Shown here one piece after another: positions 25,027 through 63,119 of a DNA stretch of 64,000 nucleotides. Every line of letters begins with the position of its first letter. The first letter of the stretch is position 1. The position numbers and the translations under genes were made by a program. The notes beneath the pieces are model-generated. The model did no database searches and was not told the origin of the DNA. It was given only the letters and a program-made list of their open reading frames with translations. This DNA is from an uncultured Acidimicrobiales bacterium (GTDB lineage: Bacteria; Actinomycetota; Acidimicrobiia; Acidimicrobiales; CAZWDB01). The DNA is taken from NCBI GenBank assembly GCA_964632885.1, contig CAZWDB010000004.1, positions 11,892-75,891 of the forward strand, given 5' to 3'.

Positions 25027-25554
25027 TCAACCGCGAAGCCACGCGCCCAGGGTCGCTGACGTCTCCGCCACAGCATCGGCGAGCGACAGGTCCGTAGTGT
25101 CGAGCAGGAATGATCGTGGCGCGCGCGACGCCAATTCGCGGTAAAGCCGGTGGTAGTGCTCGTGCTTGGCTGGTTCGCCGGGATCCTCGCCGCGTTCGCG
25201 GAGGCGACGCATTGTTACGGGCGTCGACGCCCAGCACACGATGGTGGGCGGCAGCCCGTCGCTCTCCCAGTCGTGCCAAAATACTTCGGGCAGTACGGTG
25301 AACATTGTTGTCCAGTGTCGGTCGCACACGACGCCTTCGGCACCAGCCGATGCGAGAACGCGTTCCACCGCGGTCCGCGCAACGTCACTTGCAAGGGCGA
25401 ACCGCTTGTTCTGCCACAGCGAAGCGATGTAATCGCCCAGCGAGTCCGCAAACGGCCGGACGAAACGCAGGCTGTGCCGTTCTGCAACCGCCGCCCCAAT
25501 CGAACTCTTGCCAGAGCCATCGTGGCCGTCGATGGCGACTATGGTCCCCGCCAC
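25027..25554 (-). CDS. P-loop nucleoside/nucleotide kinase-like protein (dTMP-kinase-like Walker A)
   Basis: MAGTIVAIDGHDGSGKSSIGAAVAE; about 175 aa, the size typical of small NMP kinases. Confidence 0.7.
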   Translation of the reverse strand: MAGTIVAIDGHDGSGKSSIGAAVAERHSLRFVRPFADSLGDYIASLWQNKRFALASDVARTAVERVLASAGAEGVVCDRHWTTMFTVLPEVFWHDWESDGLPPTIVCWASTPVTMRRLRERGEDPGEPAKHEHYHRLYRELASRAPRSFLLDTTDLSLADAVAETSATLGAWLRG

Positions 25555-25555
25555 G

Positions 25556-26284: not shown

Positions 26285-27462
26285 TCTGGCTGCGAAGCAG
26301 ACCGAAACTCCGTCCGTCTCCCCTTGGAAGCTCTCCGCTGAGGGCCGAATAGATGCGGCAAGACGTCGCTGCGTCTATCCCTGCCAGAGTGCCGAGACTT
26401 CTTCGCCAGTAGCGCTACCGCCGCCTTCAACTTACGATCACCAATACCCACCCAGTTTTGAACGAACGCCAAGTTGTAGTAGTGAACATAAGTGTCATCG
26501 TACTTAACCGCCAGCTTCACCAAATCCGGATAGTCGATGTCTCCCTTACTACAGACCATGACAAGGTCTCCCAACAGCTTCCCAGGCGAGTGGTTCGGTC
26601 CAATCGTGTCCCAGGTGGCTAGCTCAGCATAGACTCGCATTGAGAGGAAATAGGTGGTCAGGGCACCGTCGAATACATCACAGTCAGGTGTGATTCGATC
26701 AGGTGGTTTGGTGACCCGTTTCAATAGATCCTTGGTCTCAAGATGTGGGATCCGGACGTTGAAGTGTGGTGTCGCTCTGATGAGCACCTCGACTCGATTG
26801 GCCCTGAGGCCGCGTCCTTGAAAGAAAGGGAAGGCGCGGAGGTGTTGCCGCACAAACCCTTGCGTCCTCGGCTTCATCTTTAGTTCGGCAGGCAAGCCGA
26901 ACGCAGCCAGCTCGTAGCCGAGCTGCTGCTCATTCGCAGCTATCTCAGCGGCAGTTACGCTTCGCAGCTTCCCGCGATACGTGCGGACATGTTGCGAGTA
27001 GCCGAGGCCGTCAAGGACAGCACAAGTCGCTCGGAGGTCCTTTCGTTGGACGAAGAAGTCGATGTCCTTCATTAGGGGCACAACATCGTCTGGGTAGCAT
27101 GTGGACGCGAGGTGTATGCCCTTGAACAGCACGGGCGATACGCGCTCCTCGCGCAGACGCCGCGCGAGAACGTTCCAGGCAGAAACCTGGCACTCGTATG
27201 CGGCCACTGCGGCAAGATGCCAAAGCTGAAAGGGTGAACGTCGAGAGCGGATCCGTGAGTCGTCGAGATAGGCCTTCCGGACGAGGTGCACAATTCGCAG
27301 CTTGAATGCGGCCTCGAAGAGCGCCTCTGTTGTAACGCTCCTTAGAGTTGGCTGAAGGAGCCGTCGGTGCGACTCCCAATCGGCGCCGAACTGACGAAGC
27401 GCGCTGAGAGCGAGGTAGTCGGCAGGCGAGACGCTGACAACTTCGACGTGGTCGGCCACCAC
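26260..27462 (-). CDS. Uncharacterised nucleotidyltransferase (NTP_transf_5/PF14907-like)
   Basis: VLFKGIHLASTCYPDDVVPLMKDIDFFVQRKDLRATCAVLDGLGY matches the family core as I remember it. This is the most A/T-rich gene of the window by eye. Confidence 0.65.
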   Translation of the reverse strand: MVADHVEVVSVSPADYLALSALRQFGADWESHRRLLQPTLRSVTTEALFEAAFKLRIVHLVRKAYLDDSRIRSRRSPFQLWHLAAVAAYECQVSAWNVLARRLREERVSPVLFKGIHLASTCYPDDVVPLMKDIDFFVQRKDLRATCAVLDGLGYSQHVRTYRGKLRSVTAAEIAANEQQLGYELAAFGLPAELKMKPRTQGFVRQHLRAFPFFQGRGLRANRVEVLIRATPHFNVRIPHLETKDLLKRVTKPPDRITPDCDVFDGALTTYFLSMRVYAELATWDTIGPNHSPGKLLGDLVMVCSKGDIDYPDLVKLAVKYDDTYVHYYNLAFVQNWVGIGDRKLKAAVALLAKKSRHSGRDRRSDVLPHLFGPQRRASKGRRTEFRSASQPEWQGDLAQ

Positions 27463-39427: not shown

Positions 39428-42400
39428 CTACACCACTTCCTTCGCGATCGAGAGTGTCCGGCGGCGCACGGCCAGATAGACGGGCGCCGCCAAGAGGAGC
39501 CAGACCAACCCGAAGAGGACCGCTTGCAGAGGCTCGCGGCGGAGGAAGCCGAGCGCCTCGCTCGGCAGGGCGATCACACGTCCGATGCCCGTTCCGCCGC
39601 TGAGCGGTGACGTGGAGACCTGAGCCGCGGACCGCATGGGCGGCTCCTCGATGATGACGGTCGTCGTCTCGGTCGGTTCGTCGACGAAAGCGGCGTCGCG
39701 CGCAGCCTCCCCGTCCGTGGCGACCTGCGTCTCATCCGTGTCGCTGCTGCCAGATGTCCCGGCAATGCCCTCGAGCCCTGTGATGAACGAGAGCTCCGCT
39801 TCCTGACCCGGAAGTTGGAGCTCGAAGCCCACGTCGTCCGCGGTCAGATAGCCGTCCGGAGCCGACTTCTGGTAGACGACATAGGGGCCGAGCGGCACGT
39901 CCTCGAAGGTGCACATCCCGTCGCCGTCGGTCGTGCACTCGTCGTAGAGCTGGTCGCCGTCGCCGCGCACAAGGTCGCCGTTGTCGGCGAGGACGCCAAA
40001 CGTGGCGTCCTGAAGCGGGAGCGGCGTCCCTGTTTCCCCGCCGTCATCGGTCAGCGATATTTGGATCTCGCCAACGGCGCGAAGGTTGGTAAACACGACT
40101 TCGGTGTGCAGGCCCTCGGCGAGCGAGATCGTGGCATCGTCCGCAGGCGCGTAGCCCGCTGGGGCGGCTGTCTGAGAGACGACGTACTCGCCTGGCGCAA
40201 GCCCCTCGAACTCGCAGTCGCCGATGCCGTCTGCGCCAGTAACGCAGGCACCAAGGAGCCGACCGAGGTCAAGAGGGTCACTGTCGCGCACTTGGAACAC
40301 GCCGCCCTCGAGCGGCTCGCGGCGACTGTCTACGAGACCGACCGAGAGCTTCGTCGGTGCACTGGATTCCGGAGGTTTCGGTTCGCCAATCTGATACTGG
40401 GCCTCGGCGTACGCCCCTGCGAGCTGGAGGATGACACGAGATGCGTCACTGTTGTCGTTGTAGATCGTCAGGTCGAGACCCGTGACTTCGCTTCCAGCGT
40501 CGCCGTTCACTGTGGCGTCGCTCCAGAGTGCGAACCGATCCTTCGTAATCATGGCCTGCGCGCCGCCTGGGCTGTGCCTGGTCAAGGGGTCCATCTCGGG
40601 GCGCGGACCTCTCGCGATGACGCGTGGAGCGAGCCATCGGTTTATCGCGAGGACGACGTCCGCCACGTCGCATTGCTCTCCGCCATCCTGGTTGACCTCG
40701 TTGACGCCCGGGACCCCGCACGAGAAGAGCACATCGCCGGTGGCGTTCGTCAGCCGAACATTCTTGGCCACCGTGTCGAGAGCCGACGCCGCTGAGCCTG
40801 GCCGGCCCGCCGCTTGTGATGTCGCCTCGGTGCTGATCTCTCCGATACTGAGGGCTCCGCTTCCAGGCACTGTGACGGCGATGCCCCGCGCCGTCGACCG
40901 CGAGACCGTCTTAATGCCGCCGTCGGCCAGCTTCGTCACCTCCGCACGTGCGTCCGACTCAGCGATGCCGACGGAGACTGAATCGGGGGTAGCGGCTGGC
41001 TCGAGGGACGCCGAGGCAGACGCAATGACCGTGTCGAGGCGGCGACAGTCGGCCTCCGAGCCGGGGCGCGACGCGTTACGGGGATCGTGCTCGTTACCAA
41101 AGTCTTTGCAGGCTGACTCTTGCAGCGGTCCGGCTCTGGAACGAGCGGAGTCATACGACAGACACTCCTGGCTGGGCTGACTGTCGTCGCACTGCTCGGC
41201 GCCGTCATCGCCAACCCCGAGAGGTCCGGTCACCTGCCCGTACTTCCCCTTGAGGTCGGCTTCTGTTGCCTCGTCGACGGCGATGGCTGCCGCCGACGCT
41301 GTGGCCTCTCCCCGATCGGTCTCGCCCGTGAGCTGCGCGCCTGCGACGCGGCCCAGAAACAACCCGCGGTCGCCGCCTTCGACCTTGAACCGTTCGGTAG
41401 GCCCGGGCAGATTCGCGTTGGCATCTGAGACAAACGGAACACCTTCGACGCCTCTCACCCACATAGCTCGAGCGCCATATGCAGACCCCGCCCCACTGTG
41501 AGAGACTTGAACTGCCTCATCCTCAGGAAGGTCGTGCGTCTCTTCGTCGGGGTCCCGCGGCGCAGCGGGGATGAACGGCTGGGTGCGATCCTCGTACACC
41601 TTCACGTGAACCACTCCGCTCGGCTCGGAGAAGTTGCCCGGCTCGAAGACGCTCCGTGTAACCGGGTCGACGGTCAGGTCGGTGTCCAGCCAGTGTCCGA
41701 TCGGGATCGGCTCGCTCACCACGACGGGTAGCCCGGCGTTGTCCATGAAGCGCACCGCATTGTCGTTCTGGTCCAAGACGTACATGCGCCCTGTAGCGGG
41801 GTCGACTCCGCCACCCCCGACGTTGCCGAAGCCCAAGAGCATCGACCCGATCCAAGCGCCGTGGCGGGCGTCGAAGACGTACGTGCGCTGACCGAAGTTG
41901 GCACTGACCCCTATCGCAATGCGATCGCCCGCAGGATCGCCGATCGCGAAACCGCTGTTCAGGATGTTGCCCGCGAATGGGAAGAACTCCGTCGTCACGT
42001 CGGCAAGAGGGTCGACCGAGTTGGGCTCGTCAACGTGTATCCGCGCCACGCCCGGAGGCACCGAGAAGCCCGTCGCGTTGCGGCAACCCAGGTAGACGAA
42101 GCTGCCGTCCTCAGCCGCATCGATGTACGAAGTGCCCTTCCGTTGCTGGAGTGGGATGCCACAGGAGGGAACGCGGTAGGTCCATAGCGGCCTTGACGTG
42201 CCGCTTAGGGAGGCCGCGCGGTAGGCATGGACCGCGATTCCCTTGGCGTCCTTTCCTGCCGGACTGTGGTCAAATGTCTGACCGCTGGAGGTGAGCACGT
42301 AAAGGCGGTCGCGGGTCTTGTCGACCGCGAGCCCACTCACGACGTCACCTTCCGCCACGTTGGGAGGTGTCTGCTCGGACTGCAGCACAGTCGCCGCTCT

Positions 42401-42967
42401 GGGAAGTTGCACCTGTACCGGCGTCGGGTTAGCTACGGCGAGATCGACGAACGCGAAGCGGCCGGGCTCGGCGCAACCGGCCGGGTTCGTCGGAGCAAAG
42501 TTCGCGCAGCCAAGGTGGAACGACCGTTCGCCGACGAACAGACGGGCCCGAGTTGGATCGTAGGCGGAGACCGTAAACCGCTTCGACGGAAGGCTGCTTA
42601 GGTCGATCCACCGGGTCTGGGTTTGTGTATCGATGTCGACCACACCGACACCCGGCTGCACCGTACCACTACCCTCGGGAAGATAAGCCAGCAACTGGCG
42701 CCGGGCAACATCGACGTGGAGCAATGGCTTGGTCTGCGTCCCGCCCAACGTGCTGCTTGGGTTGGCGCACGTGGGCGAGCAGTTCGAGAGGCTCAGGTCA
42801 GCGACCAACGGGAACCTCGGGTCCGGCGCCGCGGCCGTCGCTACCTGCGGTACTGCGACCGAGAGGGTCGCCGAGACAGCGGCAACAAGTAACCCGACGA
42901 CGACACGCCGAGCAACGTGCGCCCAAGTCCTCTCTGCGTGCTCTCGGTTAGTCGTCGCGGCCACCAT
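39428..42967 (-). CDS. Giant exported surface protein with two C-terminal SpaA/Cna-B-like prealbumin-fold domains and a TM anchor
   Basis: Signal-like VVVGLLVAAVSATLSVAVPQVATAAAP. GGVFQVRDSD...CEFEGLAPGEYVVSQTAAPAGYAPADD and ATFGVLADNG...CTFEDVPLGPYVVYQKSAPDGYLTADD. C-terminal LQAVLFGLVWLLLAAPVYLAVRRR. Confidence 0.8.
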   Translation of the reverse strand: MVAATTNREHAERTWAHVARRVVVGLLVAAVSATLSVAVPQVATAAAPDPRFPLVADLSLSNCSPTCANPSSTLGGTQTKPLLHVDVARRQLLAYLPEGSGTVQPGVGVVDIDTQTQTRWIDLSSLPSKRFTVSAYDPTRARLFVGERSFHLGCANFAPTNPAGCAEPGRFAFVDLAVANPTPVQVQLPRAATVLQSEQTPPNVAEGDVVSGLAVDKTRDRLYVLTSSGQTFDHSPAGKDAKGIAVHAYRAASLSGTSRPLWTYRVPSCGIPLQQRKGTSYIDAAEDGSFVYLGCRNATGFSVPPGVARIHVDEPNSVDPLADVTTEFFPFAGNILNSGFAIGDPAGDRIAIGVSANFGQRTYVFDARHGAWIGSMLLGFGNVGGGGVDPATGRMYVLDQNDNAVRFMDNAGLPVVVSEPIPIGHWLDTDLTVDPVTRSVFEPGNFSEPSGVVHVKVYEDRTQPFIPAAPRDPDEETHDLPEDEAVQVSHSGAGSAYGARAMWVRGVEGVPFVSDANANLPGPTERFKVEGGDRGLFLGRVAGAQLTGETDRGEATASAAAIAVDEATEADLKGKYGQVTGPLGVGDDGAEQCDDSQPSQECLSYDSARSRAGPLQESACKDFGNEHDPRNASRPGSEADCRRLDTVIASASASLEPAATPDSVSVGIAESDARAEVTKLADGGIKTVSRSTARGIAVTVPGSGALSIGEISTEATSQAAGRPGSAASALDTVAKNVRLTNATGDVLFSCGVPGVNEVNQDGGEQCDVADVVLAINRWLAPRVIARGPRPEMDPLTRHSPGGAQAMITKDRFALWSDATVNGDAGSEVTGLDLTIYNDNSDASRVILQLAGAYAEAQYQIGEPKPPESSAPTKLSVGLVDSRREPLEGGVFQVRDSDPLDLGRLLGACVTGADGIGDCEFEGLAPGEYVVSQTAAPAGYAPADDATISLAEGLHTEVVFTNLRAVGEIQISLTDDGGETGTPLPLQDATFGVLADNGDLVRGDGDQLYDECTTDGDGMCTFEDVPLGPYVVYQKSAPDGYLTADDVGFELQLPGQEAELSFITGLEGIAGTSGSSDTDETQVATDGEAARDAAFVDEPTETTTVIIEEPPMRSAAQVSTSPLSGGTGIGRVIALPSEALGFLRREPLQAVLFGLVWLLLAAPVYLAVRRRTLSIAKEVV

Positions 42968-52231: not shown

Positions 52232-52330
52232 CGTTGCGGCTTGGTCCGCTAGTGGCCCTCGTTCCTCGATAGCAGTACGAGCTCGACCAGTCGGTTGGCC
52301 GCGTCGCCTTCGCGGGACGTCGGCGGCGGC

Positions 52331-53302
52331 ATGGATGAACGCCTGCGACACTGGACTATGCCCGAACCGAAGTTCTGCGATCACTGCGCGGCGAGCTTGG
52401 TGCCCCTCGCGGTTCCCCATGTCGAGCGGTCATGCACGGACTGCGGCAAGTCGACATTCATCGTGGAACCAGGCGACGGGGGAAGGGGCATCAAGATCCG
52501 CGAAGGGGACAACTTCACTATTCCAGCTGGGTGGCTCAAGATGTCACTCGACCCTTCCAAGGCCACGGCTCGACTGTTCAAGCCTGGGGTCGCGTGGTTC
52601 GTGACTCAGCTCCTCGCCGGCGAGCTCCCGTCCGAGCCGAACGACGTCGGCGCCTATCTCCAAAAGCTCAAGGAGAAGGCTGACCTGGTCCTGGAGGCGA
52701 GCCCGCGCCTCTCTCACCTCGACCTGGAGAACGAGGAGGACGCTGACAAGGCGATCGAGCTGCTGGAGTCCGACCGGAATTCTGCTGAGTGGTGGGCGCT
52801 TCTTATCGGCAGCCTCGCCTCGAGTCTGCTTGATGACTTGCATGCTGGCGCCGCTCCGTCCGTAGTCGTCCACTCCGTCCGGATGCAGGCGGCCCACTCG
52901 ATGCTCGTCTTCAAGCAGAACCTCGAGGAGCACGTCTGGACGGGCTATAGGCACACAGGGCTCATATATGACATCGCCTCTGCGTCGGCGCGTACACCGA
53001 ACGACGCCGAGAAGATCCAGGCGCTGCGCCCCCTGTTCTCACGCCTCGAAGAGGATGTACTCCACGCCTGGGTGGAGGGTGATGTCGAACTTGGGACGAG
53101 GATCGGCGTGTCGGATGTTGATGAGGCGTTGCTCAAGGGGTTAGCGAAGTATCACCTGAGCGTGTTCGAGCGCAGGCGCCAGGAGTCCACGCTCGCGCGC
53201 GAGCACGCGTCCCGGGTCTGGACGAATCGCATCGCTGCCGCAAGCGTCGGCGCTGTACTCGCCTCTCCCGTCGTCGCGGCGCTGACCGCGATTCTGATCT
53301 GA
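52331..53302 (+). CDS. Hypothetical protein with N-terminal four-Cys zinc ribbon and C-terminal TM helix
   Basis: MDERLRHWTMPEPKFCDHCAASLVPLAVPHVERSCTDCGK (CxxC-x17-CxxC). C-terminal AAASVGAVLASPVVAALTAILI. The track start is TTG 52295. Confidence 0.65.
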   Translation: MDERLRHWTMPEPKFCDHCAASLVPLAVPHVERSCTDCGKSTFIVEPGDGGRGIKIREGDNFTIPAGWLKMSLDPSKATARLFKPGVAWFVTQLLAGELPSEPNDVGAYLQKLKEKADLVLEASPRLSHLDLENEEDADKAIELLESDRNSAEWWALLIGSLASSLLDDLHAGAAPSVVVHSVRMQAAHSMLVFKQNLEEHVWTGYRHTGLIYDIASASARTPNDAEKIQALRPLFSRLEEDVLHAWVEGDVELGTRIGVSDVDEALLKGLAKYHLSVFERRRQESTLAREHASRVWTNRIAAASVGAVLASPVVAALTAILI

Positions 53303-53377: not shown

Positions 53378-54049
53378 GTGGAGCCCGGCGAAGAGCCAGA
53401 TCTCTGGAGTCGGCTGTTTGTTCGGGTCGCACTCGTACTCAGTGGCCCCGCCACGTTGTGGTTGACCTCATGGGGGATCGTGGTTGCCTCCGCCGACCGG
53501 CAGAGCCGCGCCTTCTGGAACTGGGGTTCTGGGCTCGCCGTAGCCGCCTCCACCGCCGGCCTCGGGTTGTTTGTGCTCGCCACGCTACGCGGCCTGCAGA
53601 GAGAGAAGCTGAACGAACGCCGGGAGTTCGATCGGCGGCTCGAAATGGGCCTTGATCGTCCGGCGTTACCACTCCATCCTGGCGTCCCGCCACGGGGCAG
53701 GCCATCGACGAACTGGCAGCTGCTTCCTGGAGAATGCGTACGTCTCGCGCAAGACCTTGAGCGGTTCAGCCGTGACGTTGATCGCGGAGCAAGCGACATT
53801 GATGAGTACCAAGGAGAGTTGGCACGACGCGCTAGCGGGCTCCTCGACAACGTCCAAGAACACATGCAAGTTGACGACGCTGCAGGGCACACCAGCCGGA
53901 TTGAGCACGCCCGGTCCGCGTCGGCCGTTCGGACGCTGGGTACCTGGTTCCGAGAACTGGCAACCGAGTTCACACGCCATATGCAGGAGCGGATTGCCGG
54001 AGACCGACAGAGACTCCACGGACGACGCAGCTGGTCCGCTGACAGCTAG
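53378..54049 (+). CDS. Hypothetical membrane protein (two N-terminal TM helices plus a helical cytoplasmic domain)
   Basis: LFVRVALVLSGPATLWLTSWGIVVA and GSGLAVAASTAGLGLFVLATL. No family recognised. Confidence 0.55.
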   Translation: MEPGEEPDLWSRLFVRVALVLSGPATLWLTSWGIVVASADRQSRAFWNWGSGLAVAASTAGLGLFVLATLRGLQREKLNERREFDRRLEMGLDRPALPLHPGVPPRGRPSTNWQLLPGECVRLAQDLERFSRDVDRGASDIDEYQGELARRASGLLDNVQEHMQVDDAAGHTSRIEHARSASAVRTLGTWFRELATEFTRHMQERIAGDRQRLHGRRSWSADS

Positions 54050-54652: not shown

Positions 54653-56031
54653 CTACCTCGTGCCGGCGTAGCGACCGGACCTACCACTGCAGCGGTCGCC
54701 GGACGGATCCTTGTGGGCACGCAACTTTGAGTTGCGAGTGGTGTGAGCGAACTCGCGACCACAGCGGTTGCACTCGTACAGATACTCAGGTCCTCTCGAC
54801 CGCCTCGATCGCGATGTCCGCGAACCCCGAGGCACAGGCGTCCGATACTGCGGCGGCGCATGCAGCGGACCGTGCGCCGAGAACTCGATTGGGAATCGCG
54901 GACGGAATGGTGTTGTGGTGACTCGCAGGCGGGTGATCCTCTCGACCCGGTAGGAGCGATGCCCACTGCCGTCGGCCCGCTCAGCGTGCAAGATCAGGTT
55001 CCCTGCACGGGTCCGGCGTAGCGAGTACGGCTCGATGAGGCGCGTCGTCCCGTCGTAGTGCAGTTCGACGAGAAGGCGGTTCGCGGCCGCGAAGCGCGCT
55101 GCCTCGAGGGGCACGCCGGCACGCCAAGTTGAGACAGTCGGTGGGGGCGACCAAGACTCGTCCTCGTCGCGGCCGTATGCGATCGCACCTGCGACTACCT
55201 CCTGAACTTCACGCTCCAGCCACGCGAAGAGCAATGGGAGCTCCTCAAGGAAGGGCTCGAGTGGCGGCAGGGCCGGAAGTTGATGACCGAGCATGTTGCC
55301 CCACTCCGACTCCAACTCGAGCAGCAAAGGCGGGTCATCGAAGTCGGCTGCAGTCGGTACCGAGATGCTCTTCACGGCGCACTTCTCTACAAGCGCCGAC
55401 CGAATCGCCTCGGGATGCATCCGCAAGTCGTTGCGCCGGAACAGGTTGATGATGTCGTACAGATCGCGCGGCCTTCCCCGCTGCGCCATGGCGCGGATCT
55501 TTTCGGCGAACAGCTCGTCAAATGAGTAGCAGCGGGTGTTGCCGCCGCTGGGGAACGTGTCGGGGTAGGGGTGAGCGATCTTCTGCAACACAGCTGGTCG
55601 GACCACTCGTTCGTCAGCGGAGAGGTCGAGCTTGACGCGCGGCGTCTGCGATGGCGTCCGGCGCGGGCCGGTGTAGTAAACGCGGCCCTCCGTCGACAGC
55701 TGGTTGGGCCGCAAGCGAAGCCGGGGCGCTGTCGAGAAGTCCAGCCCCGACTCGTCTGTGATGCGCGTCAGGGTTCGCCTCAGCAGCGGCTCGACGTCTT
55801 CCGGTCGGTATGGGGCGTCTGGAAGCACGGTGAAGTCGAGGTCCTCGGAGAACCGGTATGTCTCGATGTAGCACTTCTTGAGACACGTCCCTTGAAGACC
55901 CACGCCTGCGAGAGGACCGGGTCGGTTCCGATCCCCCACAGGAGCCATCCGAGGACGTAGTCCTTCTCGACCACCTCCTCAGTCAGGCCCCTCTCCCTGA
56001 CGCGCTCGACGATGTCTGCGCGGGTGATCAC
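54653..56031 (-). pseudogene. AbiEii/DUF1814 nucleotidyltransferase toxin fused to a WYL domain and C-terminal Zn ribbon, interrupted by a 1-nt frameshift near 55886-55893
   Basis: N-terminal piece (ORF 55780-56031): VITRADIVERVRERGLTEEVVEKDYVLGWLLW...AWVFKG. Continuation in the other frame (ORF 54653-55948): TCLKKCYIETYRFSEDLDFTV...FAEKIRAM. WYL-like: LVELHYDGTTRLIEPYSLRRTRAGNLILHAERADGSGHRSYRVERITRL. Zn ribbon: YECNRCGREF. The GTG start forms a GTGA overlap with the AbiEi stop. Confidence 0.7.
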
Positions 56032-56876
56032 CAGTCGCCTCCAGCGGTTCCCAAGGTCACGTTGGCGCGGATCCCCCAGCGCCGGACGATGCGGCCCTTT
56101 GCGTCTATCGATGGGTCAAGTGCGACGAGCCCACTGCTGCGCCTCGCGTGGCAGGCCGCGATCAGGTCGGGCGCGTTCACGCCGACATGCTCGAGAACGA
56201 AGCCGAAGCGCTTGAAGACCGCCCGGTTGCCAAGCCGGTCGCCGTACGCGACCAGCAACTCGTCGTCACGATGCTCGCTGTGGAGGTATTCGTGCAGTAC
56301 GTCTGCGACGTTGCGCATCCCGCCGCCGAGCGAGGGGTCGTCGAAGATGTCGACGACGGTCCGCGTCGGATCGGAGACCTGCACTCGGACCTGGCCGCGC
56401 CACACCGGCGTCGTGCCGAAAAGGTTCTCCTCCGACCGAACAGTGACGCGGAACGATGTGCCCTGGATCACTGGCTCGCGCTCGCGCACCCTTCTCGCAG
56501 TGACGACAAGGACGGTGCGAAAGATCTGCTCCGTCAGGTCCCAGTGCTCACAAGCGCTCCAGCCACCGATGTAGCAGGGGTTGAACACACGGGCCGCGAC
56601 AACCCACGCGTCCTCGACCCACTCGCCTGGCCGCCGGGCATCGAGAGGAACCGCCACATAGAGACCGCGGCGGACGCGAGCCAGCCAGCCACGCCGAGCC
56701 AGGTAGGCGAGAAGCTTGCGCGTCCGGTCCACGTCCAGGCCGATTGCCGCCGCGGCCTGAGCGACGTCGAAGGCGCCAACCATTTCGCGGTGCAGCCGTT
56801 CGAGCAGGATTCGGTTGTCGCGGTTGATGCCCCGCGTACGGGCTCCGGGCGTCCGAGTGTCCCTAGTGTGCATCAT
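56028..56876 (-). CDS. AbiEi-type antitoxin / transcriptional regulator (type IV TA)
   Basis: ORF trimmed to ATG 56876. The N-terminal winged-helix-like region is FDVAQAAAAIGLDVDRTRKLLAYLARRGWLARVRRGLYVAVP. Its position directly upstream of AbiEii, overlapping it, supports the call. Confidence 0.75.
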   Translation of the reverse strand: MMHTRDTRTPGARTRGINRDNRILLERLHREMVGAFDVAQAAAAIGLDVDRTRKLLAYLARRGWLARVRRGLYVAVPLDARRPGEWVEDAWVVAARVFNPCYIGGWSACEHWDLTEQIFRTVLVVTARRVREREPVIQGTSFRVTVRSEENLFGTTPVWRGQVRVQVSDPTRTVVDIFDDPSLGGGMRNVADVLHEYLHSEHRDDELLVAYGDRLGNRAVFKRFGFVLEHVGVNAPDLIAACHARRSSGLVALDPSIDAKGRIVRRWGIRANVTLGTAGGDW

Positions 56877-56887
56877 ACTGCGTGTTG

Positions 56888-56903
56888 CATATACCGGTAT
56901 ATG
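56888..56903. promoter_or_regulatory. 16-bp perfect palindrome CATATACCGGTATATG, candidate AbiEi operator
   Basis: It lies 11 nt upstream of the AbiEi ATG in an A/T-rich patch. Further TACCG(G) copies occur at 56934-56965. Confidence 0.5.
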
Positions 56904-57028
56904 ACACACGATGTACTACTCATATAGTAAGTAATACCGCGGCTGTGGTGTACCGGCGCCACCGGAACGGCTACGTGGCTCCATCGAGCGTCGCGATCAG
57001 CCCGGCTGGTGAGTAGTAGCGAAGGCTC

Positions 57029-58126
57029 TCATGCCAGAGTGAGCCAGGCATCGTGCTCCGTGGCGGCGCGCGGTCGCTCCCCCGAGAAGTGCGTTGCCTG
57101 TCGTCGCCCCTGGTCCGCGGAACCCGCTCGAACGATGGTCGTGAACCGCCAGGGCGAATCTCGGACCGACTCTTTGAGAATCGCGAGGGGGTCGGCGTCC
57201 CGATCGCTGATGCCACCGAACCGAACGACCATCTGTGCGTCGCTGCGGCAAACCTCGGCCACGTTGCGCCACACGTCCCGAAGTTGCCTCGCGAATGCAG
57301 CCGGGCTTGGATGGTCCAGCTGCTTGGGATTCGAGTAGTCCACAGATGCGGGCCCGCCTACGAACCAGTTCCTCAGCCACTGATCGGGGACGTACGTGCG
57401 CATGCCGTAGAAGGGTGGCGACGTGACTGTCCATCGCACCTTCCGGTCGATTGCTTCGAACGTAGCGCTACTCCTGCTATCGCCACAGATCGCGAAGCCC
57501 TCTGCGAACGGCTGGCTCGTGTAGTACCGCGTGGCTCGAACCTTCACCACTGCCCGGACATCGACGCGCGGGGCGTGCATTCCGCGAGTAGTCCAGAATC
57601 GAACTGCGTAGTTCGGCTTCGGCGCGTAGGTGCGCGTGCATTGGTTCGACAGGTGTGATGGCGCTCTCTTGGTGAGCGGACCGTGCAGTGCGCCAAGCAA
57701 AGTCGCTCGAAGCGCGCGTCTGGCATCCGATGTGCAGTCGCCCAGTAGGTCCTCGCGCAGCTGACAAAGTGTCGCGAGGACCTCTGGATGGTATGCGAGG
57801 TCCCAAAACTCACCCATCGGAATGTCGAGAGCGTTTTTGCCTGCGCTCAGGATTTCGTCGGCGCACGCAACCACCTCGTCGGGGGTGACGTTAGCGAGCT
57901 TCGCCTGCGTCAACGAGACGGCCACGTTGCTGCTGTCGATCCCGACTGAAGGCAAGCCGAGGACACGCGCCGCGTAGTTCGTCGTACCGCGGCCAGAGAA
58001 CGGATCCAGCACCCACCCCCCACCTCCCGTCGTGCCGCGCCGAAGTACCCGCAGGGGGAAGTCCAGCGGGAACATCGTGAAGTACGGACAGATGGCGTTT
58101 AGTGCGGTCGAAGGCTGAGCCGTCAT
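57029..58126 (-). CDS. DNA N6-adenine/N4-cytosine methyltransferase (amino-MTase)
   Basis: VLDPFSGRGTTNYAARVLG (AdoMet motif I, N-terminal) and WTVTSPPFYGMRTY (motif IV, about 200 aa later). The start forms an ATGA overlap with the HerA stop. Confidence 0.75.
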   Translation of the reverse strand: MTAQPSTALNAICPYFTMFPLDFPLRVLRRGTTGGGGWVLDPFSGRGTTNYAARVLGLPSVGIDSSNVAVSLTQAKLANVTPDEVVACADEILSAGKNALDIPMGEFWDLAYHPEVLATLCQLREDLLGDCTSDARRALRATLLGALHGPLTKRAPSHLSNQCTRTYAPKPNYAVRFWTTRGMHAPRVDVRAVVKVRATRYYTSQPFAEGFAICGDSRSSATFEAIDRKVRWTVTSPPFYGMRTYVPDQWLRNWFVGGPASVDYSNPKQLDHPSPAAFARQLRDVWRNVAEVCRSDAQMVVRFGGISDRDADPLAILKESVRDSPWRFTTIVRAGSADQGRRQATHFSGERPRAATEHDAWLTLA

Positions 58127-59463
58127 CGATCCGGCGCTCTTCCGGCTCGTACGTAGGTCACGCCGCGGTCGTTCTTGTAGGTGTGCCAGGTCTCGTCTTG
58201 CACGCCAATGAGCTCGTTCATCGCCGTGGCGACGAGCCTGTAAGCAATCGACTCGCGGTCGTCTAGCGAGGTCGGGAGGTGTTCGACGAGAACCGCTTTG
58301 AGACTGCCCCAGGCTGCGCCGTCACCACTTCGGACCCTGGGCATCCATTGCGCGTCGTTCCTCAACGCTTCAATCGCGCGCCGCTCGAACGCCGCCATCA
58401 CATCGGCGCCCGCCGCGGCGAGGTCCCCTCCTAGATCCAGTTGACCCGCAACATCAAGTCCCCGTGTCGACTCATCGACACCCCCGGCTTCGTCACGTTC
58501 CCCCGCGAGGGGTACCCCAGCGGCCCTGAGGTCCTGCTCGAACTCCTCCCGTAAGGAGCGCGCAAACGTGTCTGCCGCCGGAGCGTCGTAGGTCGGGTCC
58601 AGCGGTGGGTACATCCGCTCGAAGGACAGAACGCGAATCGCAACCGGATACGGCGTTCCGCCCACTGAACTCCAGAACACCCCCTGGCCAGGAATCGGCT
58701 CGTTGAGCAGTGCACTGAGCAAGTCGTTGCTGAAATGCGCGTTCGCGCTCCTGACGTTGCCCAAGTCCGCGCCCGAGAGAAGGTGGAAGATGAACCAGTT
58801 GTCACCCTGGCTCAAGATCTCGACCGGAATGCTTCCAGGCTGCTGTGTGACCATCACCGCGCCGAGGTCGTACTTGCGTCCTTCCTTGACCCACGCGATG
58901 TAGGGCTCAGCAGCACTCGACCTCTCGTTGAGGACGCTCTGCGCTTCTTCGATGACGGCGATCGTCGGAATCGATCGAGGCTCAGCCGCCGTGAATTCGG
59001 CCTGGTTATGGTCGAAGATGCGACGCAGCACGAGTCCCGAGAGGATCATCGCCTGACCACTTCGCATCTGCGAGACGTCGACTACGCACAGCTTTCCTTC
59101 CCGTAGTGCGCGAAGGAGCAGATCCATGAATTGACTGGACTTGTCGTGCAACATGCCGACGATCGTCGTCATGTTCGCTCGGGCGGCAAGCGCTTCCGCT
59201 TCTTGTGCAGGCTCGAGATCGAGCAGCCTTCGGACATCCTCCAACCGAGACTGGTTGCCGTTCAGGGCGATGATGTCGACGAGCTCTCCCCATCGTTGCT
59301 GTGGCAACGCCCGCAGCTTCCGCACGTTCTGCTGGTCCTGGCGTTCCGGGCCGAGCGCGATCGCGATGACGTCGGCAGGCTTGATCCGCCGGAGATCCAG
59401 CCGGATGCCGCCAGCTACGAAGGATTGATAAAACGGGCTCGGGTTGCGGCGTGGTGTGAACAC
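58123..59463 (-). CDS. HerA-type ATPase, C-terminal fragment (continues 59415-60275 after a 1-nt frameshift)
   Basis: IPTIAVIEEAQSVL (Walker B-like) and KYDLGAVMVTQQPGSIPVEILSQGDNWFIFHL, typical of DUF87/HerA. Confidence 0.7.
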   Translation of the reverse strand: MFTPRRNPSPFYQSFVAGGIRLDLRRIKPADVIAIALGPERQDQQNVRKLRALPQQRWGELVDIIALNGNQSRLEDVRRLLDLEPAQEAEALAARANMTTIVGMLHDKSSQFMDLLLRALREGKLCVVDVSQMRSGQAMILSGLVLRRIFDHNQAEFTAAEPRSIPTIAVIEEAQSVLNERSSAAEPYIAWVKEGRKYDLGAVMVTQQPGSIPVEILSQGDNWFIFHLLSGADLGNVRSANAHFSNDLLSALLNEPIPGQGVFWSSVGGTPYPVAIRVLSFERMYPPLDPTYDAPAADTFARSLREEFEQDLRAAGVPLAGERDEAGGVDESTRGLDVAGQLDLGGDLAAAGADVMAAFERRAIEALRNDAQWMPRVRSGDGAAWGSLKAVLVEHLPTSLDDRESIAYRLVATAMNELIGVQDETWHTYKNDRGVTYVRAGRAPDR

Positions 59464-60275
59464 GCGAGCTTGTCCTCGAGTGCCGGTACATCCGCCAAAC
59501 CGGGACGCCCCTTCTCGTCTGGCCAGAAGTACTCACCGTCCGGGTCGAATACGACGGTGCCGACGGGAACCTCGCGATCTCGCTTCGCGACGGTGGGGGT
59601 CTCGTGGTACAGGGTGCTGAACAGCAGCTTGTTGAGGTTCGACTTGCCGAATCCGGCCCGAGCAAAGATGAAGGATCGCCGCGACACGAGGTTGCTAACC
59701 GGGAACTTGATCTCGACCGCTGGAGAGCGCACCTGGACCCAGTCCTCCAAGTGGTCCGCGTAGGTGCTGCCCGCGGCGTAGACGTACTCGCCCAGGGCGA
59801 ACAGCCCGATGGCCGCGCCGTCGACGTTGTGACCGGCAATCTCCTGAAGTACTGGACCCGACGGGAACGCGACCGGGCTACCGACGTGGGGCAGTCGTCG
59901 GTGGGAGGCGACGAACTGGACTCGGTCGCCGGTTCGACGAAGAACGCCGAGGACGCGGACATTGACCGCGTACCGGAGGTACTGCTCGCGAAGGTCCTCG
60001 GGGACCGCGCGTTCTTCGCGGACAGCACGGATGTTGAACTCCTCGCCACTCCCGCTCGACAGCTTCCCCTGCGACGAGAGGGACGTGATCCGCCCAAGGA
60101 CCGCCTCGTCTGGCGTCTCGAGCTGAACCAGGATGTGTTGCCCGTGCATCGGGATGCGTTGGAAGTCGCTTCGATATGGCAGAACGACGTCCGCGTGGAA
60201 CTCGAGCCCTCCTTCTCGGAACCCCCGGAATACTCCGACGACATCGTCTCGGCCGAACAGCTCTCTGATGGTCAC
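59415..60275 (-). CDS. HerA-type ATPase, N-terminal fragment (HAS-barrel-like region plus Walker A)
   Basis: The GTG 60275 start has GGAG 6 nt upstream. VVGVFRGFREGGLEFHADVVLPY...GQHILVQLETPDEAVLGRITSL. Walker A is FIFARAGFGKSNL. Confidence 0.7.
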   Translation of the reverse strand: MTIRELFGRDDVVGVFRGFREGGLEFHADVVLPYRSDFQRIPMHGQHILVQLETPDEAVLGRITSLSSQGKLSSGSGEEFNIRAVREERAVPEDLREQYLRYAVNVRVLGVLRRTGDRVQFVASHRRLPHVGSPVAFPSGPVLQEIAGHNVDGAAIGLFALGEYVYAAGSTYADHLEDWVQVRSPAVEIKFPVSNLVSRRSFIFARAGFGKSNLNKLLFSTLYHETPTVAKRDREVPVGTVVFDPDGEYFWPDEKGRPGLADVPALEDKLACSHHAATRARFINPS

Positions 60276-60284
60276 GCCATCTCC

Positions 60285-61430
60285 TCAGCCATACCGCCGT
60301 TGTGACACGTCGAGGTCCTGTAGCCGGAAGGCGTCGAGGACAGGTGCCTCCACGCCAAGTGCGCCCCGGATGCCCGCGAAGATCTCGTCCTGCAGGACGT
60401 CGAAGTCGAAGTCGACAAGGGCGGCGTTCTCATGCGCCTTCTGGAGGCAACGCGGGTACAGGGGAACGGGGAAGCCGTCGATTGCGTCGGCCAGGAGGTA
60501 GCCGAGCACTGCCTGGGCCTCTCCGCGTTGGGGCAGGAACACGTCGATCGGCCAGATCGGGTCCCTCGTACTGGATCCGAACTTGACCAAGAACATCTTG
60601 CCGCCGACGAACCGATTGATCTCCGCGTCAGCGAGCTCGCGGTCATCGCCTCGCGCGTACTCGGACCACACATACGCTTTCTCTTCCAACTCCCGAGGGA
60701 CTTCGACGTACGCGGCGTAGTCGCTCGTAAGAATCCGCTCCAGGGACATGGCGAGCTGGTAGCGGGCCAACACCTTGCTGTGCTTCGCGACGCCTACCAG
60801 GTAGATCCGCCGCCGGTTCCTCCGGTAATGGGCGTCGATTGCCTCCTCCGCAAGACTCAGGTATCGCTTGAACCGATCCGCTGCAAAGACCTTCGAGCGC
60901 AGAAGCCCGTCAAACACGATGAGCGTGTCCGTCCCGAAGTCTTTGTTCTTGAGGATCGAGTAAAGCGTGGCCCACTCGACGAGCTCTCGGTAGACCTGCA
61001 CCCAGCTCGGGCTTGTCGGCCGGTCACCTTCATTTGAACGGATCATGTGGCTCAGCGCTGGGAGTGTCGCCACCTCAAGGTCGTTCATCATCTCGCCGAG
61101 CGGCGTAGCTGGCGCGCCGTAGGCGTCGAACTGTCGCGCGCTTAGTTCGGAGACACTCGTAGTGGGCGTGATGGCCTCAAGGCAGTACTCGTTGTTGCTC
61201 GAGTCGACGACGCGGATGAGCTGTACGAGGAAGGGATCGAATTGGATCGAGTTGTTCCCGCCGTCGGTTCCGACCAGTGAGATCGATGTCGTCGTACGCG
61301 GAAGGATTCGGTGGACCCCTGCGCTGAACCGTCGGACCTCGCTGCGAAGGTCGTCGAGTAGCCCGCGATCAGCGAGGATTCGTTCCGCGATCTCGCGACG
61401 TAACCGCTCGTGACTCTCAGGCTCGATCAC
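60285..61430 (-). CDS. NurA-type 5'-3' nuclease
   Basis: SLVGTDGGNN, TLIVFDGLLRS, YLVGVAKHSKV and YPRCLQKAHENA match the NurA DGS / DGsL / KtS / AH blocks. The start is set to GTG 61430 (GAAGG RBS, 14-nt overlap with the XRE gene). The track ORF reaches 61517. Confidence 0.7.
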   Translation of the reverse strand: MIEPESHERLRREIAERILADRGLLDDLRSEVRRFSAGVHRILPRTTTSISLVGTDGGNNSIQFDPFLVQLIRVVDSSNNEYCLEAITPTTSVSELSARQFDAYGAPATPLGEMMNDLEVATLPALSHMIRSNEGDRPTSPSWVQVYRELVEWATLYSILKNKDFGTDTLIVFDGLLRSKVFAADRFKRYLSLAEEAIDAHYRRNRRRIYLVGVAKHSKVLARYQLAMSLERILTSDYAAYVEVPRELEEKAYVWSEYARGDDRELADAEINRFVGGKMFLVKFGSSTRDPIWPIDVFLPQRGEAQAVLGYLLADAIDGFPVPLYPRCLQKAHENAALVDFDFDVLQDEIFAGIRGALGVEAPVLDAFRLQDLDVSQRRYG

Positions 61431-61686
61431 TTCGCGTGCCTTCGTACGGACCGTCTGGCGAACGGATCTCGGTGCGCAGCGGTGACAGCTGGACAAGGAC
61501 GCCAGAACCGGCTGCACGCACCAGCCTCATCAACGTGGGCAGCGTCGGCTGGCGGTGGCAGTTCTCGTAGGCCGAAATCAGCGCCTGCGATACGCCAGCC
61601 CGCTTGCCGAGCGCCGCCTGAGTCAGCCCTGCCTGGACACGCCCGCGACGCAACGTGCCCGCCGCGACTTCGAGGCTTTCGTCCAC
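61417..61686 (-). CDS. XRE-family HTH regulator (start uncertain)
   Basis: LRRGRVQAGLTQAALGKRAGVSQALISAYENCHRQPTLPTLMRLVRAAG. The first plausible start after the upstream gene is GTG 61686. Confidence 0.6.
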   Translation of the reverse strand: MDESLEVAAGTLRRGRVQAGLTQAALGKRAGVSQALISAYENCHRQPTLPTLMRLVRAAGSGVLVQLSPLRTEIRSPDGPYEGTRSDRA

Positions 61687-61739
61687 GGCCGCAAGATAAG
61701 CAATCGCGTATGAGAACTGGTGGACGCCGGTCCTCGCCT

Positions 61740-61931
61740 TCAGCGAGAGCTGTTGCCAAGGCACCAATGGCAGTTGTCGTAGGACCTGTCCACCTTGGCT
61801 TCTGTCAGGGTGTGGTACCACTGGCGGTGCTCGGGTTTGATCTCGTCGAGCTGGCACGAGCTCTCCTCGTTCTGGGTGTCGTGGACCTCGAGGGTGTTGG
61901 TGTTGCCCAGGTATCGCTTCAGCTTGATCAC
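61740..61931 (-). CDS. Small Cys/His metal-binding protein (Ada-like Zn-binding look)
   Basis: MIKLKRYLGNTNTLEVHDTQNEESSCQLDEIKPEHRQWYHTLTEAKVDRSYDNCHWCLG fits the pattern vH...C...I.p.n...f.t..eA...gY..C..C. Confidence 0.55.
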   Translation of the reverse strand: MIKLKRYLGNTNTLEVHDTQNEESSCQLDEIKPEHRQWYHTLTEAKVDRSYDNCHWCLGNSSR

Positions 61932-62006
61932 GGTAACGTCCTCCTTCGACTCTCGGTACGGATCCGCGGTGTCGTGCCCGCGAGCGCAAAGCCAGTCGTC
62001 GCGGCG

Positions 62007-63119
62007 TCACAGCCGTGGCGGCGCGTCGTGGCGCGGGCGGGCGAAGCGGCCGAGGCCGCCGATGGGGAGCTCGGCGGGCGGCGTGCCGGCCGCGCCGCCG
62101 CGCGCGCCGAGGCGGGCGAGGCGGCGCAGTAGCGGCACCCGTTGGCGGGCAGCGAGGTAGAGGACGACCGCGCCGGCGAACAGCACCGCGGCCGCGGTGG
62201 TCTGGGCGGTGGTGTCATCGATGGACGCGGGCACCGCCGGCCGGACCTCGGGCAGGGCAACCTGGCGCCGCGTAGGCGCGGGCGCAACGGGCTCGGCGAG
62301 GTCGACGGACGGGGCGACGGGCTCCGGCCCGAACGCCGGCGCGGCTGGGGCCGGCAGCTCCTCCTCGAAGACAGGCGCGGGCGCGAGTGGTGGCGGCACG
62401 GCGGTGAGGGGGTCCTTGGTGACTGCGGCACTGCTCTCCGGCGGTGCCACGACGTCGGCGACCGTGACGTCGACGGCGAGGGCAGCAGCGTCGACCTTCT
62501 CAAACCGCAGCTCGAAGGGGGCATGCGCTCCCACCGGTGCGTCCGCGTCGACGAAGGGCACGATAGCCACGTCGACCTCCCGGCTCCCGCCGGCGTCTCG
62601 CGCGAGCCCGGCGAGGTCGAACGTCCACGCGCTGCCGTCCTCGGCGGGGACTCCCGCCACCGACGCCCCGCCGAAGGCGGCGTCACAGTCGGCCAGAGGC
62701 CGGCTGTCCCACCGCCCGCCCTCCTCCCCCACCCACGCCGACGCCGTCGGGCACGCCAGCAGGTCGCCCTCGCCGGCACCGTTGCCGTCCGCCACCGCGA
62801 GCGTGAGCACGGGGTTCGTCTCGTCCGAACCGAGCGCGAAGCGGACGGCGCCAATGGCGTGGGCGCCGTCGGGGTCGCGGGCGACGAACAGGCCGCCGTC
62901 GGGTACGTCGGGAGGCGGGGGTGGCGCGGGCGCGGTGCCGGGCAGTCCCACGTCCGGCGCGGGCCCGACGCCGTCGACCGTCTCGCCGGTGTTGGCCCGC
63001 CACCACCAGCCCGAGTCGGCCAGCTCGGCGGCCCCGGCTGGCGCGCCAGCCACGGCGATCAGGACGGCGGCCACCGCGACGCAGACGGCGGAACGGGCGA
63101 CGAGTCTCATGGCTCTCAT
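62007..63119 (-). CDS. Exported hypothetical protein with C-terminal TM anchor
   Basis: ORF trimmed to ATG 63119, which forms an ATGA overlap with the ABC ATPase stop. MRAMRLVARSAVCVAVAAVLIAVAGAPAGA signal. C-terminal AAAVLFAGAVVLYLAARQR. Confidence 0.7.
   Translation of the reverse strand: MRAMRLVARSAVCVAVAAVLIAVAGAPAGAAELADSGWWWRANTGETVDGVGPAPDVGLPGTAPAPPPPPDVPDGGLFVARDPDGAHAIGAVRFALGSDETNPVLTLAVADGNGAGEGDLLACPTASAWVGEEGGRWDSRPLADCDAAFGGASVAGVPAEDGSAWTFDLAGLARDAGGSREVDVAIVPFVDADAPVGAHAPFELRFEKVDAAALAVDVTVADVVAPPESSAAVTKDPLTAVPPPLAPAPVFEEELPAPAAPAFGPEPVAPSVDLAEPVAPAPTRRQVALPEVRPAVPASIDDTTAQTTAAAVLFAGAVVLYLAARQRVPLLRRLARLGARGGAAGTPPAELPIGGLGRFARPRHDAPPRL

Follow-up and report, generated by a model that had tools for sequence, protein, structure and literature searches.

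The DNA considered here, referred to as the window, is a 64,000-nucleotide stretch of a contig from an uncultured Acidimicrobiales bacterium. The locus in question occupies positions 57029-61931 of its minus strand, where the genes of a NurA-type nuclease, a HerA-type ATPase and a DNA amino-methyltransferase follow each other head to tail. A previous annotation made from the letters alone (the sequence-only reading) had given the locus five packed genes. They do lie where that reading put them, but the consecutive open reading frames (ORFs) listed there are six, with the ATPase divided between two of them, and the unit that is conserved in other genomes consists of three genes, NurA, HerA and the methylase, and not of five. 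Two junctions are as first described: the 3' end of a gene for an XRE-family regulator overlaps the NurA start by 14 nt, and an ATGA overlap joins the end of HerA to the start of the methylase. The GGAG noted before the HerA GTG start is also present, but its spacer is 5 nt and not 6. The coordinates are collected in Table 1, together with those of the neighbouring AbiE genes.

Table 1. Features of the NurA-HerA-methylase locus and of the adjoining AbiE genes, in window coordinates.
Feature	Position	Strand	Evidence
63-aa Cys/His protein, H..C...CHWC	61740-61931	minus	ORF, GGAGG upstream
XRE-family helix-turn-helix (HTH) regulator	61417-61764	minus	HTH_3 1.9e-11
NurA-family (RNase H/PIWI-fold, as predicted) nuclease, 381 aa, apparently intact	60285-61430	minus	profile and predicted (AlphaFold2) fold
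HerA N-terminal fragment, 286 aa, N-terminal HAS-barrel region and Walker A ARAGFGKSN	59415-60275	minus	DUF87
Net -1 frameshift splitting HerA	59464-59470	minus	alignment to intact orthologues
HerA C-terminal fragment, 446 aa, Walker B IAVIEEAQ, rest of ATPase core and ~140-aa extension	58123-59463	minus	
Permuted beta-class N4/N6 DNA amino-methyltransferase, 365 aa, apparently intact	57029-58126	minus	PF01555
AbiEi, intact	56028-56909	minus	PADLOC 8.5e-87
AbiEii, frameshifted near 55895	54653-56031	minus	PADLOC, stitched pieces

The locus adjoins AbiE in an island of low G+C content, as had been supposed; the G+C fraction is 0.63-0.65 over 52-62 kb and 0.70-0.75 in both flanks. The operon indeed holds no conventional restriction endonuclease. 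A type IIG enzyme is likewise absent from the operon, and an integrative and conjugative element (ICE) with integrase and att repeats is absent from the window.

The HerA gene of the window is broken. It consists of two overlapping ORFs in different frames, with Walker A in the first and Walker B in the second. Over residues 1-276 of intact orthologues, the N-terminal ORF is 72-76 % identical to them. Set against intact orthologues (703 and 708 aa) at the break, the window protein reads LEDKLA and then CSHH, with homology back at VFTPRR, where the orthologues read LEDKLVVFTPR. At the level of nucleotides, aag ctc gcg tgt tca stands where the orthologues encode K-L-V-V-F-T. The net -1 shift lies at about 59464-59470 within 'aagctcgcgtgttc'; this sequence forms no homopolymer and no slippery site. 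Programmed frameshifting is rejected because a slippery sequence is missing and the orthologues are written in one frame. The Logan assembly of run SRR12687281 (contig L003) is 100 % identical over 5543 bp, corresponding to window positions 56691-62233, and has the same two-ORF split. HerA is a single ORF of about 704-717 aa in 67 of 70 species representatives, and one ORF of 717 aa in L091, the relative with 89 % NurA identity. A single polypeptide bearing both Walker motifs, as expected for a ring ATPase, is thus encoded in these orthologues and not in the window. Three further HerA genes are disrupted, in L045 (stop near 9783), L078 (shift near 11969, at almost the same position as in the window) and L079 (shift near 12314-12423), and these are either cases of recurrent inactivation or assembly errors in metagenome-assembled genomes.

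Since the ATPase core is split, the triad in this genome is most likely inactive, and the restriction arm of the window copy, with Walker A separated from Walker B, is most likely dead. The island's genes for the methylase, NurA, XRE and AbiEi all look intact, and loss of the motor and nuclease arm next to an intact methylase is the usual route by which restriction-modification (R-M) loci decay. The methylase of this genome is now probably an orphan. AbiEii is interrupted as well, its frame being broken between FKG and TCLKK near 55895. With its pieces stitched together, the score is 425.3 bits instead of 365.5, and the match extends over positions 1-395 of the 396 in the PADLOC AbiEii profile. 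From the two frameshifts it follows that the island holds two inactivated effectors. The stitched AbiEii also has a WYL-like C-terminal part.

Apart from its division into two ORFs, which the sequence-only reading had overlooked, the motor was correctly recognised: judged by profile and by sequence matches to the PDB, it belongs to the HerA/DUF87 family, and its Walker motifs are where they were read. DUF87 matches residues 185-255 of the N-terminal ORF at 1.9e-10. The C-terminal ORF matches HerA in PADLOC at 2.4e-15, and in NCBIfam the HerA models reach 4.6e-14, far below their equivalog cut-offs. The match of the window HerA to the PADLOC models of defence-associated HerA is weak (1.6e-17). 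When an intact orthologue is used to search the PDB by sequence, TdpA (8wet_A) comes first with an E-value of 9.9e-21, archaeal HerA (4d2i) has 1.3e-11, and the HerA proteins of defence systems rank below TdpA. The C-terminal extension of about 140 aa on HerA is absent from TdpA.

For the nuclease, the sequence profile is less decisive than the fold. The start is a GTG giving MIEPESH, which is common to all relatives, while the mechanical ORF extends to 61517. The Pfam NurA profile (PF09376) covers the protein at profile positions 4-252 of 254 but scores 19.0-19.4 bits against a cut-off of 21, so the hidden Markov model search supports HerA and the methylase and falls short for NurA. Among twelve relatives the profile is found in five at E <= 0.01, the best at 2.2e-5. 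A first AlphaFold2 model, built from 12 close relatives, had a predicted local distance difference test (pLDDT) score of 50 and was unusable. It was replaced by one based on a diverse alignment of 43 sequences, 26-69 % identical to the window protein and chosen from the 490 NurA-like matches (E <= 0.001) of a profile search through 1.84 billion representatives. The second model has a pLDDT of 89.6 and a predicted template modelling (pTM) score of 0.88.

Compared with the PDB by Foldseek, the second model finds TdpB in the TdpAB-DNA complex (8wfd_G) as its best match, with E 3.4e-11 and TM scores of 0.58/0.61. NurA of Sulfolobus, Thermococcus and Pyrococcus (2ygk, 9x1m, 3tai) come next, followed by Argonaute PIWI domains. 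The top 11 PDB matches are all TdpB or NurA chains, with E from 3.4e-11 to 2.1e-4, and TdpB is the best match of the protein by sequence as well. The predicted fold is RNase H/PIWI-like and confirms the original NurA call. The GTDGG, VFDGLL and KAHENA motifs are retained in the window protein. D56 and D76 are near-invariant (39 of the 43 aligned sequences) and present in the window copy, which also has E152, D296 and D315, each conserved to 90 % or more in relatives that are 26-69 % identical. In PADLOC-DB v2 the NurA-like protein matches no model, and a cluster look-up of its distant relatives returns only 'hypothetical protein'.

The third gene had been read as an amino-methyltransferase with motif I placed N-terminal to motif IV, and so it is. 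The canonical beta order, with motif IV N-terminal and motif I C-terminal, is reversed in the window protein, where VLDPFSGRGTT precedes TSPPFYG at residues 235-241. The PF01555 match (2.5e-9) is confined to residues 14-72, the motif-I end of the profile, and PADLOC matches the protein to MTase_II at 2.9e-15. A profile of 17 orthologues finds TTHA0409 (2zie) first in the PDB, at 1.7e-10, and then the N4-cytosine methyltransferase 8s9n, DpnA and CcrM. In the alignment to 2zie, residues 208-306 of the query correspond to 21-101 of the chain and residues 18-76 to 220-278. The segments thus occur in permuted order, from which it follows that the enzyme is a circularly permuted beta-class amino-methyltransferase. 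The motif cores D41, P42, G45-T48 and S236-P238 are strictly invariant in the 17 aligned orthologues, and the orthologues are uniform, about 365 aa long with motifs I and IV conserved throughout (17-56 orthologues). Their alignment contains no hypervariable target-recognition segment. The methylase diverges faster than NurA, with 67 % identity in L091 against 89 % for NurA.

The triad recurs widely. The NurA-like protein has at least 2974 homologues, all unnamed, in a database clustered at 90 %, and it occurs with 63-71 % identity to the window protein in at least 215 GTDB species representatives. The carriers belong to more than ten phyla in all, among them Chloroflexota, many Pseudomonadota, Cyanobacteriota (Acaryochloris marina), Bacteroidota, Planctomycetota, Acidobacteriota, Verrucomicrobiota, Nitrospirota and Bacillota; metagenomic contigs with the NurA-HerA-methylase family number in the hundreds. 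Cultured carriers of an intact triad include Methylococcus capsulatus Texas ATCC 19069 (L019), Acaryochloris marina MBIC11017 (L046), Cupriavidus cauae MKL-01 (L022) and Desulfacinum infernum DSM 9756 (L034). The triad has spread horizontally between distant phyla. Identity across phyla is 66-80 % for the N-terminal half of HerA and 63-71 % for NurA, which is unusually high for genes of mobile islands.

HerA directly follows NurA in every locus. Linkage to the methylase was counted in the loci that have a complete HerA and room for a neighbouring methylase to be seen, 70 of them genomic and 48 metagenomic. A methylase orthologue lies directly downstream on the same strand in 57/70 genomic and 31/48 metagenomic loci. 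In 11/48 metagenomic loci it is immediately adjacent and convergent, an arrangement that was not counted separately among the genomic loci. A divergent methylase paralogue (42-45 % identity) is found nearby in 6/70 and 1/48; the six in genomes are placed upstream, in convergent orientation or at a distance of several kb. No methylase was found in 7/70 and 5/48; carriers without an adjacent one include Bordetella genomosp. 2 AU8256 (L051) and Ectothiorhodospira shaposhnikovii DSM 243 (L060). Altogether the methylase adjoins NurA-HerA in about 100 of the 118 informative loci, in several orientations, so the triad, first noticed in a single genome, is conserved elsewhere. The 11 loci with a convergent methylase come from a single clade, in which NurA is 55-60 % identical to that of the window (L110, L111, L113, L119, L121, L142, L146, L148, L151, L169 and L175), and a convergent methylase after HerA is a second conserved architecture of the triad. 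Since adjacency survives inversion, the linkage is argued to be functional rather than a mere matter of co-transcription.

The usual setting of the triad is that of a bare three-gene cassette between unrelated housekeeping genes. The 80 immediate flanking genes of 40 loci include Sacsin/NOV proteins (TmtA in PADLOC) five times, further PF01555 methylases five times, integrases three times, GmrSD, UvrD/GajB-like helicases and Mokosh twice each, and also DpdJ, HsdM and WYL regulators. In L002 the triad adjoins a PLD-SNF2 protein, an integrase fragment and a type IIG-like enzyme, the gene of which is about 6 kb away on the opposite strand. PLSDB plasmids contain no close homologue of the triad, phage genomes contain no triad, and among the 2.9 million viral contigs of IMG/VR it appears once, as a partial match. 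Therefore the cassette is not a phage or plasmid element. In four betaproteobacterial loci (L020, L024, L051 and L059, at about 3300-9900) a NurA-HerA pair without its own adjacent methylase lies directly downstream of the gene of a Sacsin/NOV_C protein of about 1084-1152 aa (PADLOC TmtA). Upstream of the latter there is a divergent gene for a UvrD-type helicase of about 970 aa, which carries a PD-(D/E)XK domain in L024 and is truncated to about 309 aa in L020. In L026, L036 and L040 a type I HsdM and a WYL regulator stand upstream instead.

The sequence-only reading knew of no earlier example of this pairing of NurA with a methylase, but two known systems come close to it. The first is TdpABC, a third phosphorothioate-based R-M system, with TdpC as its single writer (PMC12914056, which cites An et al., Nat Chem Biol 2025). 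Its structures (PDB 8wet, 8wfd and 8y1k) concern thermophile proteins, of which TdpA is HerA-like, TdpB is NurA-like and TdpC writes the phosphorothioate. A hexamer of TdpA reportedly threads duplex DNA while TdpB cuts it, and phosphorothioate on self DNA is said to block both. As set out above, TdpA is the best PDB sequence match of HerA and TdpB the best match of the nuclease in both sequence and fold, and in both systems a nuclease, a translocase and one DNA-modifying enzyme make up a compact set of three genes. The differences are that the third gene of the window encodes a PF01555 amino-methyltransferase and not a phosphorothioate-writing TdpC, that HerA of the window family is about 120 aa longer and has an extra C-terminal domain, and that the hosts of the triad are mostly mesophiles of many phyla. 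No Pfam family of DndC or PAPS reductase is matched by the genes called in the inspected triad loci. A search for the Tdp/Tdt family with a 196-aa fragment of TdpA returned only 8 short fragments in uninformative contexts.

The second is an operon on ICETh1 of Thermus thermophilus HB27, which contains the NurA-like TTC1878 (377 aa), the ATPase TdtA (TTC1879) and the PF01555 methylase TTC1880 (PMC5365140). By description, these are the same kinds of genes in the same order as in the triad: a NurA-like protein of about 380 aa, a HerA/FtsK ATPase and an N4/N6 methylase. This order is found in the window and in 57 genomic and 31 metagenomic loci. The ICETh1 operon is likewise transcribed as a unit and carried by DNA of horizontal origin (PMC5365140). 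With nurA or tdtA knocked out, transjugation is lost or much reduced, and the methylase is almost unnecessary for it; the operon also contains, and needs, a type IIG enzyme (TthHB27I/Tth111II), and the element has an integrase and att repeats (PMC5365140, PMC7767461). In contrast, the window lacks both the type IIG enzyme and an integrase-bearing ICE, HerA is about 704 aa here against the 568 aa of TdtA, and the role demonstrated for the Thermus operon is DNA donation. Because the triad has neither TdpC nor the type IIG and ICE features, it is filed under neither TdpABC nor ICETh1.

Other named systems fit less well. Like SIR2-HerA and DUF4297-HerA (Gao_Her), the triad combines a HerA-family hexamer with an effector and occurs in defence islands, but its effector is NurA, and those systems have no methylase. 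Membership in them is rejected, as neither effector domain is found in the operon by Pfam or PADLOC and the corresponding HerA models match weakly. MADS is rejected as well: HerA matches mad8 weakly (4.4e-7, or 2e-10 when stitched) and no other mad model is matched. So are the 'HerA/FtsK capture systems' of Dnd and BREX, as the text of PMC10853773 and PMC12839542 has no NurA. Full-text searches of the literature found no paper that names a defence system of NurA, HerA and a methylase, and the defence catalogues that were checked do not list the triad, REBASE and catalogues from after 2023 being outside that search, and the opinion that the triad is not one of the named systems is upheld to this extent.

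Compared with classical R-M systems that have a controller, the triad shares a co-located methylase that is translationally coupled to the nuclease module, a compact cassette that spreads horizontally, an XRE-type HTH gene that in the closest relatives overlaps the nuclease gene, and a decay that spares the methylase. It differs from them in that its nuclease has the RNase H fold and works with a ring translocase, without a PD-(D/E)XK, HNH or PLD endonuclease, and in that its methylase has no variable target-recognition region. The unnamed triad would be a HerA-NurA restriction module guarded by DNA modification, a variant on the theme of TdpABC.

From these comparisons we infer a role in restriction-like defence, which is probably the function of the triad, with methylation as the protection of self DNA. 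For the locus in the window, the reading that we prefer, with a probability of roughly one half, is that it is the decayed form of a Tdp-like restriction module whose guard is methylation and not phosphorothioation. To exemplify how such a module might operate, consider a host in which all three genes are intact. The methylase would mark the DNA of the host with N4-methylcytosine (m4C) or N6-methyladenine (m6A). The HerA ring, with NurA on top, would thread DNA at the expense of ATP and degrade it. Unmarked phage or plasmid DNA would then be processed and marked DNA spared. The C-terminal extension of HerA, about 140 aa long, is a candidate reader of the methyl mark, and in the lineage of the window the XRE protein, whose gene overlaps that of the nuclease, may serve as the counterpart of an R-M controller protein. 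This reading is supported by the identities of the three proteins, the best matches of the motor and the nuclease to TdpA and TdpB, the horizontal spread as a bare cassette, the tight linkage of the methylase, the defence and mobilome neighbours, the pattern of decay and the XRE overlap in the two closest loci.

The wider proposition, that the triad forms a distinct and widespread class of ATP-dependent R-M systems in which a base methyl (m4C or m6A) licenses self DNA against a processive ring-translocase and an RNase H-fold nuclease, is put forward tentatively, at rather less than even odds. If methylation does gate the machine, then modification-controlled HerA-NurA restriction would be general and extend beyond the TdpABC of thermophiles, and the writer module would be interchangeable, producing either phosphorothioate or methyl. 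It would also pose a mechanistic puzzle, namely how a ring translocase that is expected to grip mainly the backbone can read a methyl group on a base, for which the extra C-terminal domain of HerA is the obvious candidate, and it would be a reason to look again at the Thermus ICETh1 operon, which has the same architecture and is described as a device for DNA donation. For this genome the consequence is more modest, an island with two broken effectors, HerA and AbiEii, and a probably orphan methylase.

Several observations weigh against a methylation-guarded module. The seven genomic and five metagenomic loci that have an apparently intact NurA-HerA and no related methylase within reach mean that the pair is not necessarily lethal without the methylase; at about one in ten, they weaken a strict view in which survival of the nuclease requires methylation. 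Some of them adjoin a type I HsdM. The only operon of this gene order that has been studied, that of ICETh1, serves DNA donation, and loss of its methylase has a minor effect (PMC5365140, PMC7767461). Distant relatives of NurA-HerA (31-44 % identity) stand without a methylase among housekeeping genes, beside FtsK and RecQ in the case of L088, and the ancestry of the pair may therefore lie in DNA repair. The pore of HerA is expected, by our own reasoning, to contact mainly the DNA backbone, and sensing of a base methyl would therefore need another kind of reader than that for phosphorothioate. The similarity to TdpA and TdpB is distant, with 19 % identity between NurA and TdpB and a TM score of about 0.6. 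Finally, a methylase without a variable target-recognition region is unusual for R-M systems that diversify.

The alternative that survives best, although we regard it as unlikely, is that the triad is a machine for DNA donation or mobilisation of the ICETh1 kind, in which the HerA-like motor pumps double-stranded DNA, NurA trims it, the methylase plays a minor part and the outcome is promotion of gene transfer. The gene order equals that of TTC1878/TTC1879/TTC1880, where nurA and tdtA are needed and the methylase can nearly be dispensed with (PMC5365140, PMC7767461), and the cassette has clearly been transferred horizontally. However, a type IIG enzyme is needed by ICETh1, which also carries an integrase and att repeats, and most triad loci have none of these alongside. 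TdtA is also the shorter protein, 568 aa against about 704 aa. Further, a device resembling conjugation would be expected on mobile replicons, whereas the cassette is missing from PLSDB and phages and turns up in only one of 2.9 million viral contigs.

A little less probable again is an effector triggered by infection, as in SIR2-HerA and DUF4297-HerA. HerA-NurA would then be inactive until a phage cue appears and would thereupon degrade DNA indiscriminately, and the methylase would be an accessory or an anti-anti-restriction element rather than the basis for telling self from non-self. Effectors scaffolded by HerA are established in defence (PMC11291478, PMC11472057, PMC11514289). Moreover, intact pairs without a methylase do exist, and several of these 12 loci lie inside clear defence islands, with UvrD-PD-(D/E)XK and Sacsin/NOV, with type I R-M, or with IrrE-XRE and PIN. 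For an optional accessory, however, adjacency of the methylase in about 100 of 118 loci, maintained through changes of orientation, is unexpected, and HerA matches the PADLOC defence-HerA weakly (1.6e-17), with TdpA as its best match.

Quite improbable is a housekeeping pair for end resection and repair, as in archaea and Deinococcus, to which the methylase would be an unrelated passenger or an epigenetic regulator. Archaeal HerA-NurA couples translocation to digestion (PMC12977600), and there are likenesses: the nuclease model matches the NurA fold (2ygk, 3tai, 9x1m), the motor matches the HerA ATPase (4d2i, 1.3e-11), and their genes sit side by side with probable translational coupling. The bare pairs among housekeeping genes at 31-44 % identity, such as L088 beside FtsK and RecQ, and the many triads lying between metabolic genes would also suit such a role. 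Unlike the archaeal and Deinococcus pairs, however, the triad has no linkage to Mre11/Rad50. It is instead linked to a methylase of one family, tightly enough for the linkage to survive rearrangement, it has defence and mobilome neighbours and tolerates inactivating mutations, and its occurrence is patchy and horizontal, identity between phyla being 63-71 %.

The least probable alternative concerns the window copy only, namely that it still works because two HerA fragments are made and reassembled or because the reads themselves are in error at the frameshift; the GTG start of the C-terminal ORF does coincide with the point where homology resumes, and the NurA and methylase genes have no lesions, but the break lies within the ATPase core and parts Walker A from Walker B, neither a slippery site nor a Shine-Dalgarno sequence before the GTG is present, the site is no homopolymer and reads an identical sequence when assembled independently, 67/70 orthologues are single ORFs, and the frameshift in AbiEii fits an island in decay.

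The two genes upstream of NurA, which had been read correctly as those of an XRE HTH regulator and a 63-aa Cys/His protein, are not part of the conserved unit. Among the relatives examined, XRE is kept only in L091, where it is 60 % identical and likewise overlaps the NurA start. It is missing upstream of NurA in L090, the 78 % relative, and both genes are absent from all 160 more distant triad loci examined; the 63-aa gene accompanies no triad other than that of the window. It is possible that the XRE protein is a controller of the nuclease genes resembling the C proteins.

The 63-aa gene has a GGAGG 8 nt 5' of its GTG start. Its product has no match in Pfam, PADLOC or NCBIfam, so that in the PADLOC search HerA and the methylase were matched but this protein and the NurA-like protein were not. 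It has homologues in at least 134 clusters, 63-64 aa long, from Actinomycetota including Ca. Microthrix. The gene is real but belongs to a separate actinobacterial family outside the conserved system, and its product may be a small regulator or the marker of an insertion hot spot. In three Ca. Microthrix contigs (L093-L095) a gene of this family lies at 6001-6192, where it adjoins a divergently transcribed XRE gene (155 aa) and an M78/ImmA-like peptidase gene, with no NurA-HerA. Beyond it there is variable mobile DNA: L094 has three tyrosine recombinases there, and L093 an IS21-type transposase and its helper.

A scan for promoters and terminators on the coding strand of the region gave nothing informative. 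The region has a single sigma-70-like match. It falls in the AT-rich spacer (56910-57028) that separates the end of the methylase gene from the AbiEi start, lies on the plus strand at 56901-56928, reaching slightly into the beginning of AbiEi, and so is directed away from both operons.

The island holds two more ORFs on the plus strand, one at 52295-53302 (335 aa, with zinc-ribbon-like CxxC...CxxC motifs) and one at 53378-54049 (223 aa). Neither has a match in Pfam, PADLOC or NCBIfam, and they could be further uncharacterised cargo. Elsewhere in the window, a second stretch of low G+C content (0.60-0.66) at 22910-27462 on the minus strand encodes a B12-binding radical SAM protein (805 aa) and an NTP_transf_5 nucleotidyltransferase (400 aa), and could be a cluster for peptide modification. 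In a third stretch of lower G+C content, at 37-45 kb, the minus-strand gene at 39428-42967 encodes a protein of 1179 aa with SpaA/prealbumin-like repeats, of the surface adhesin or pilin type.

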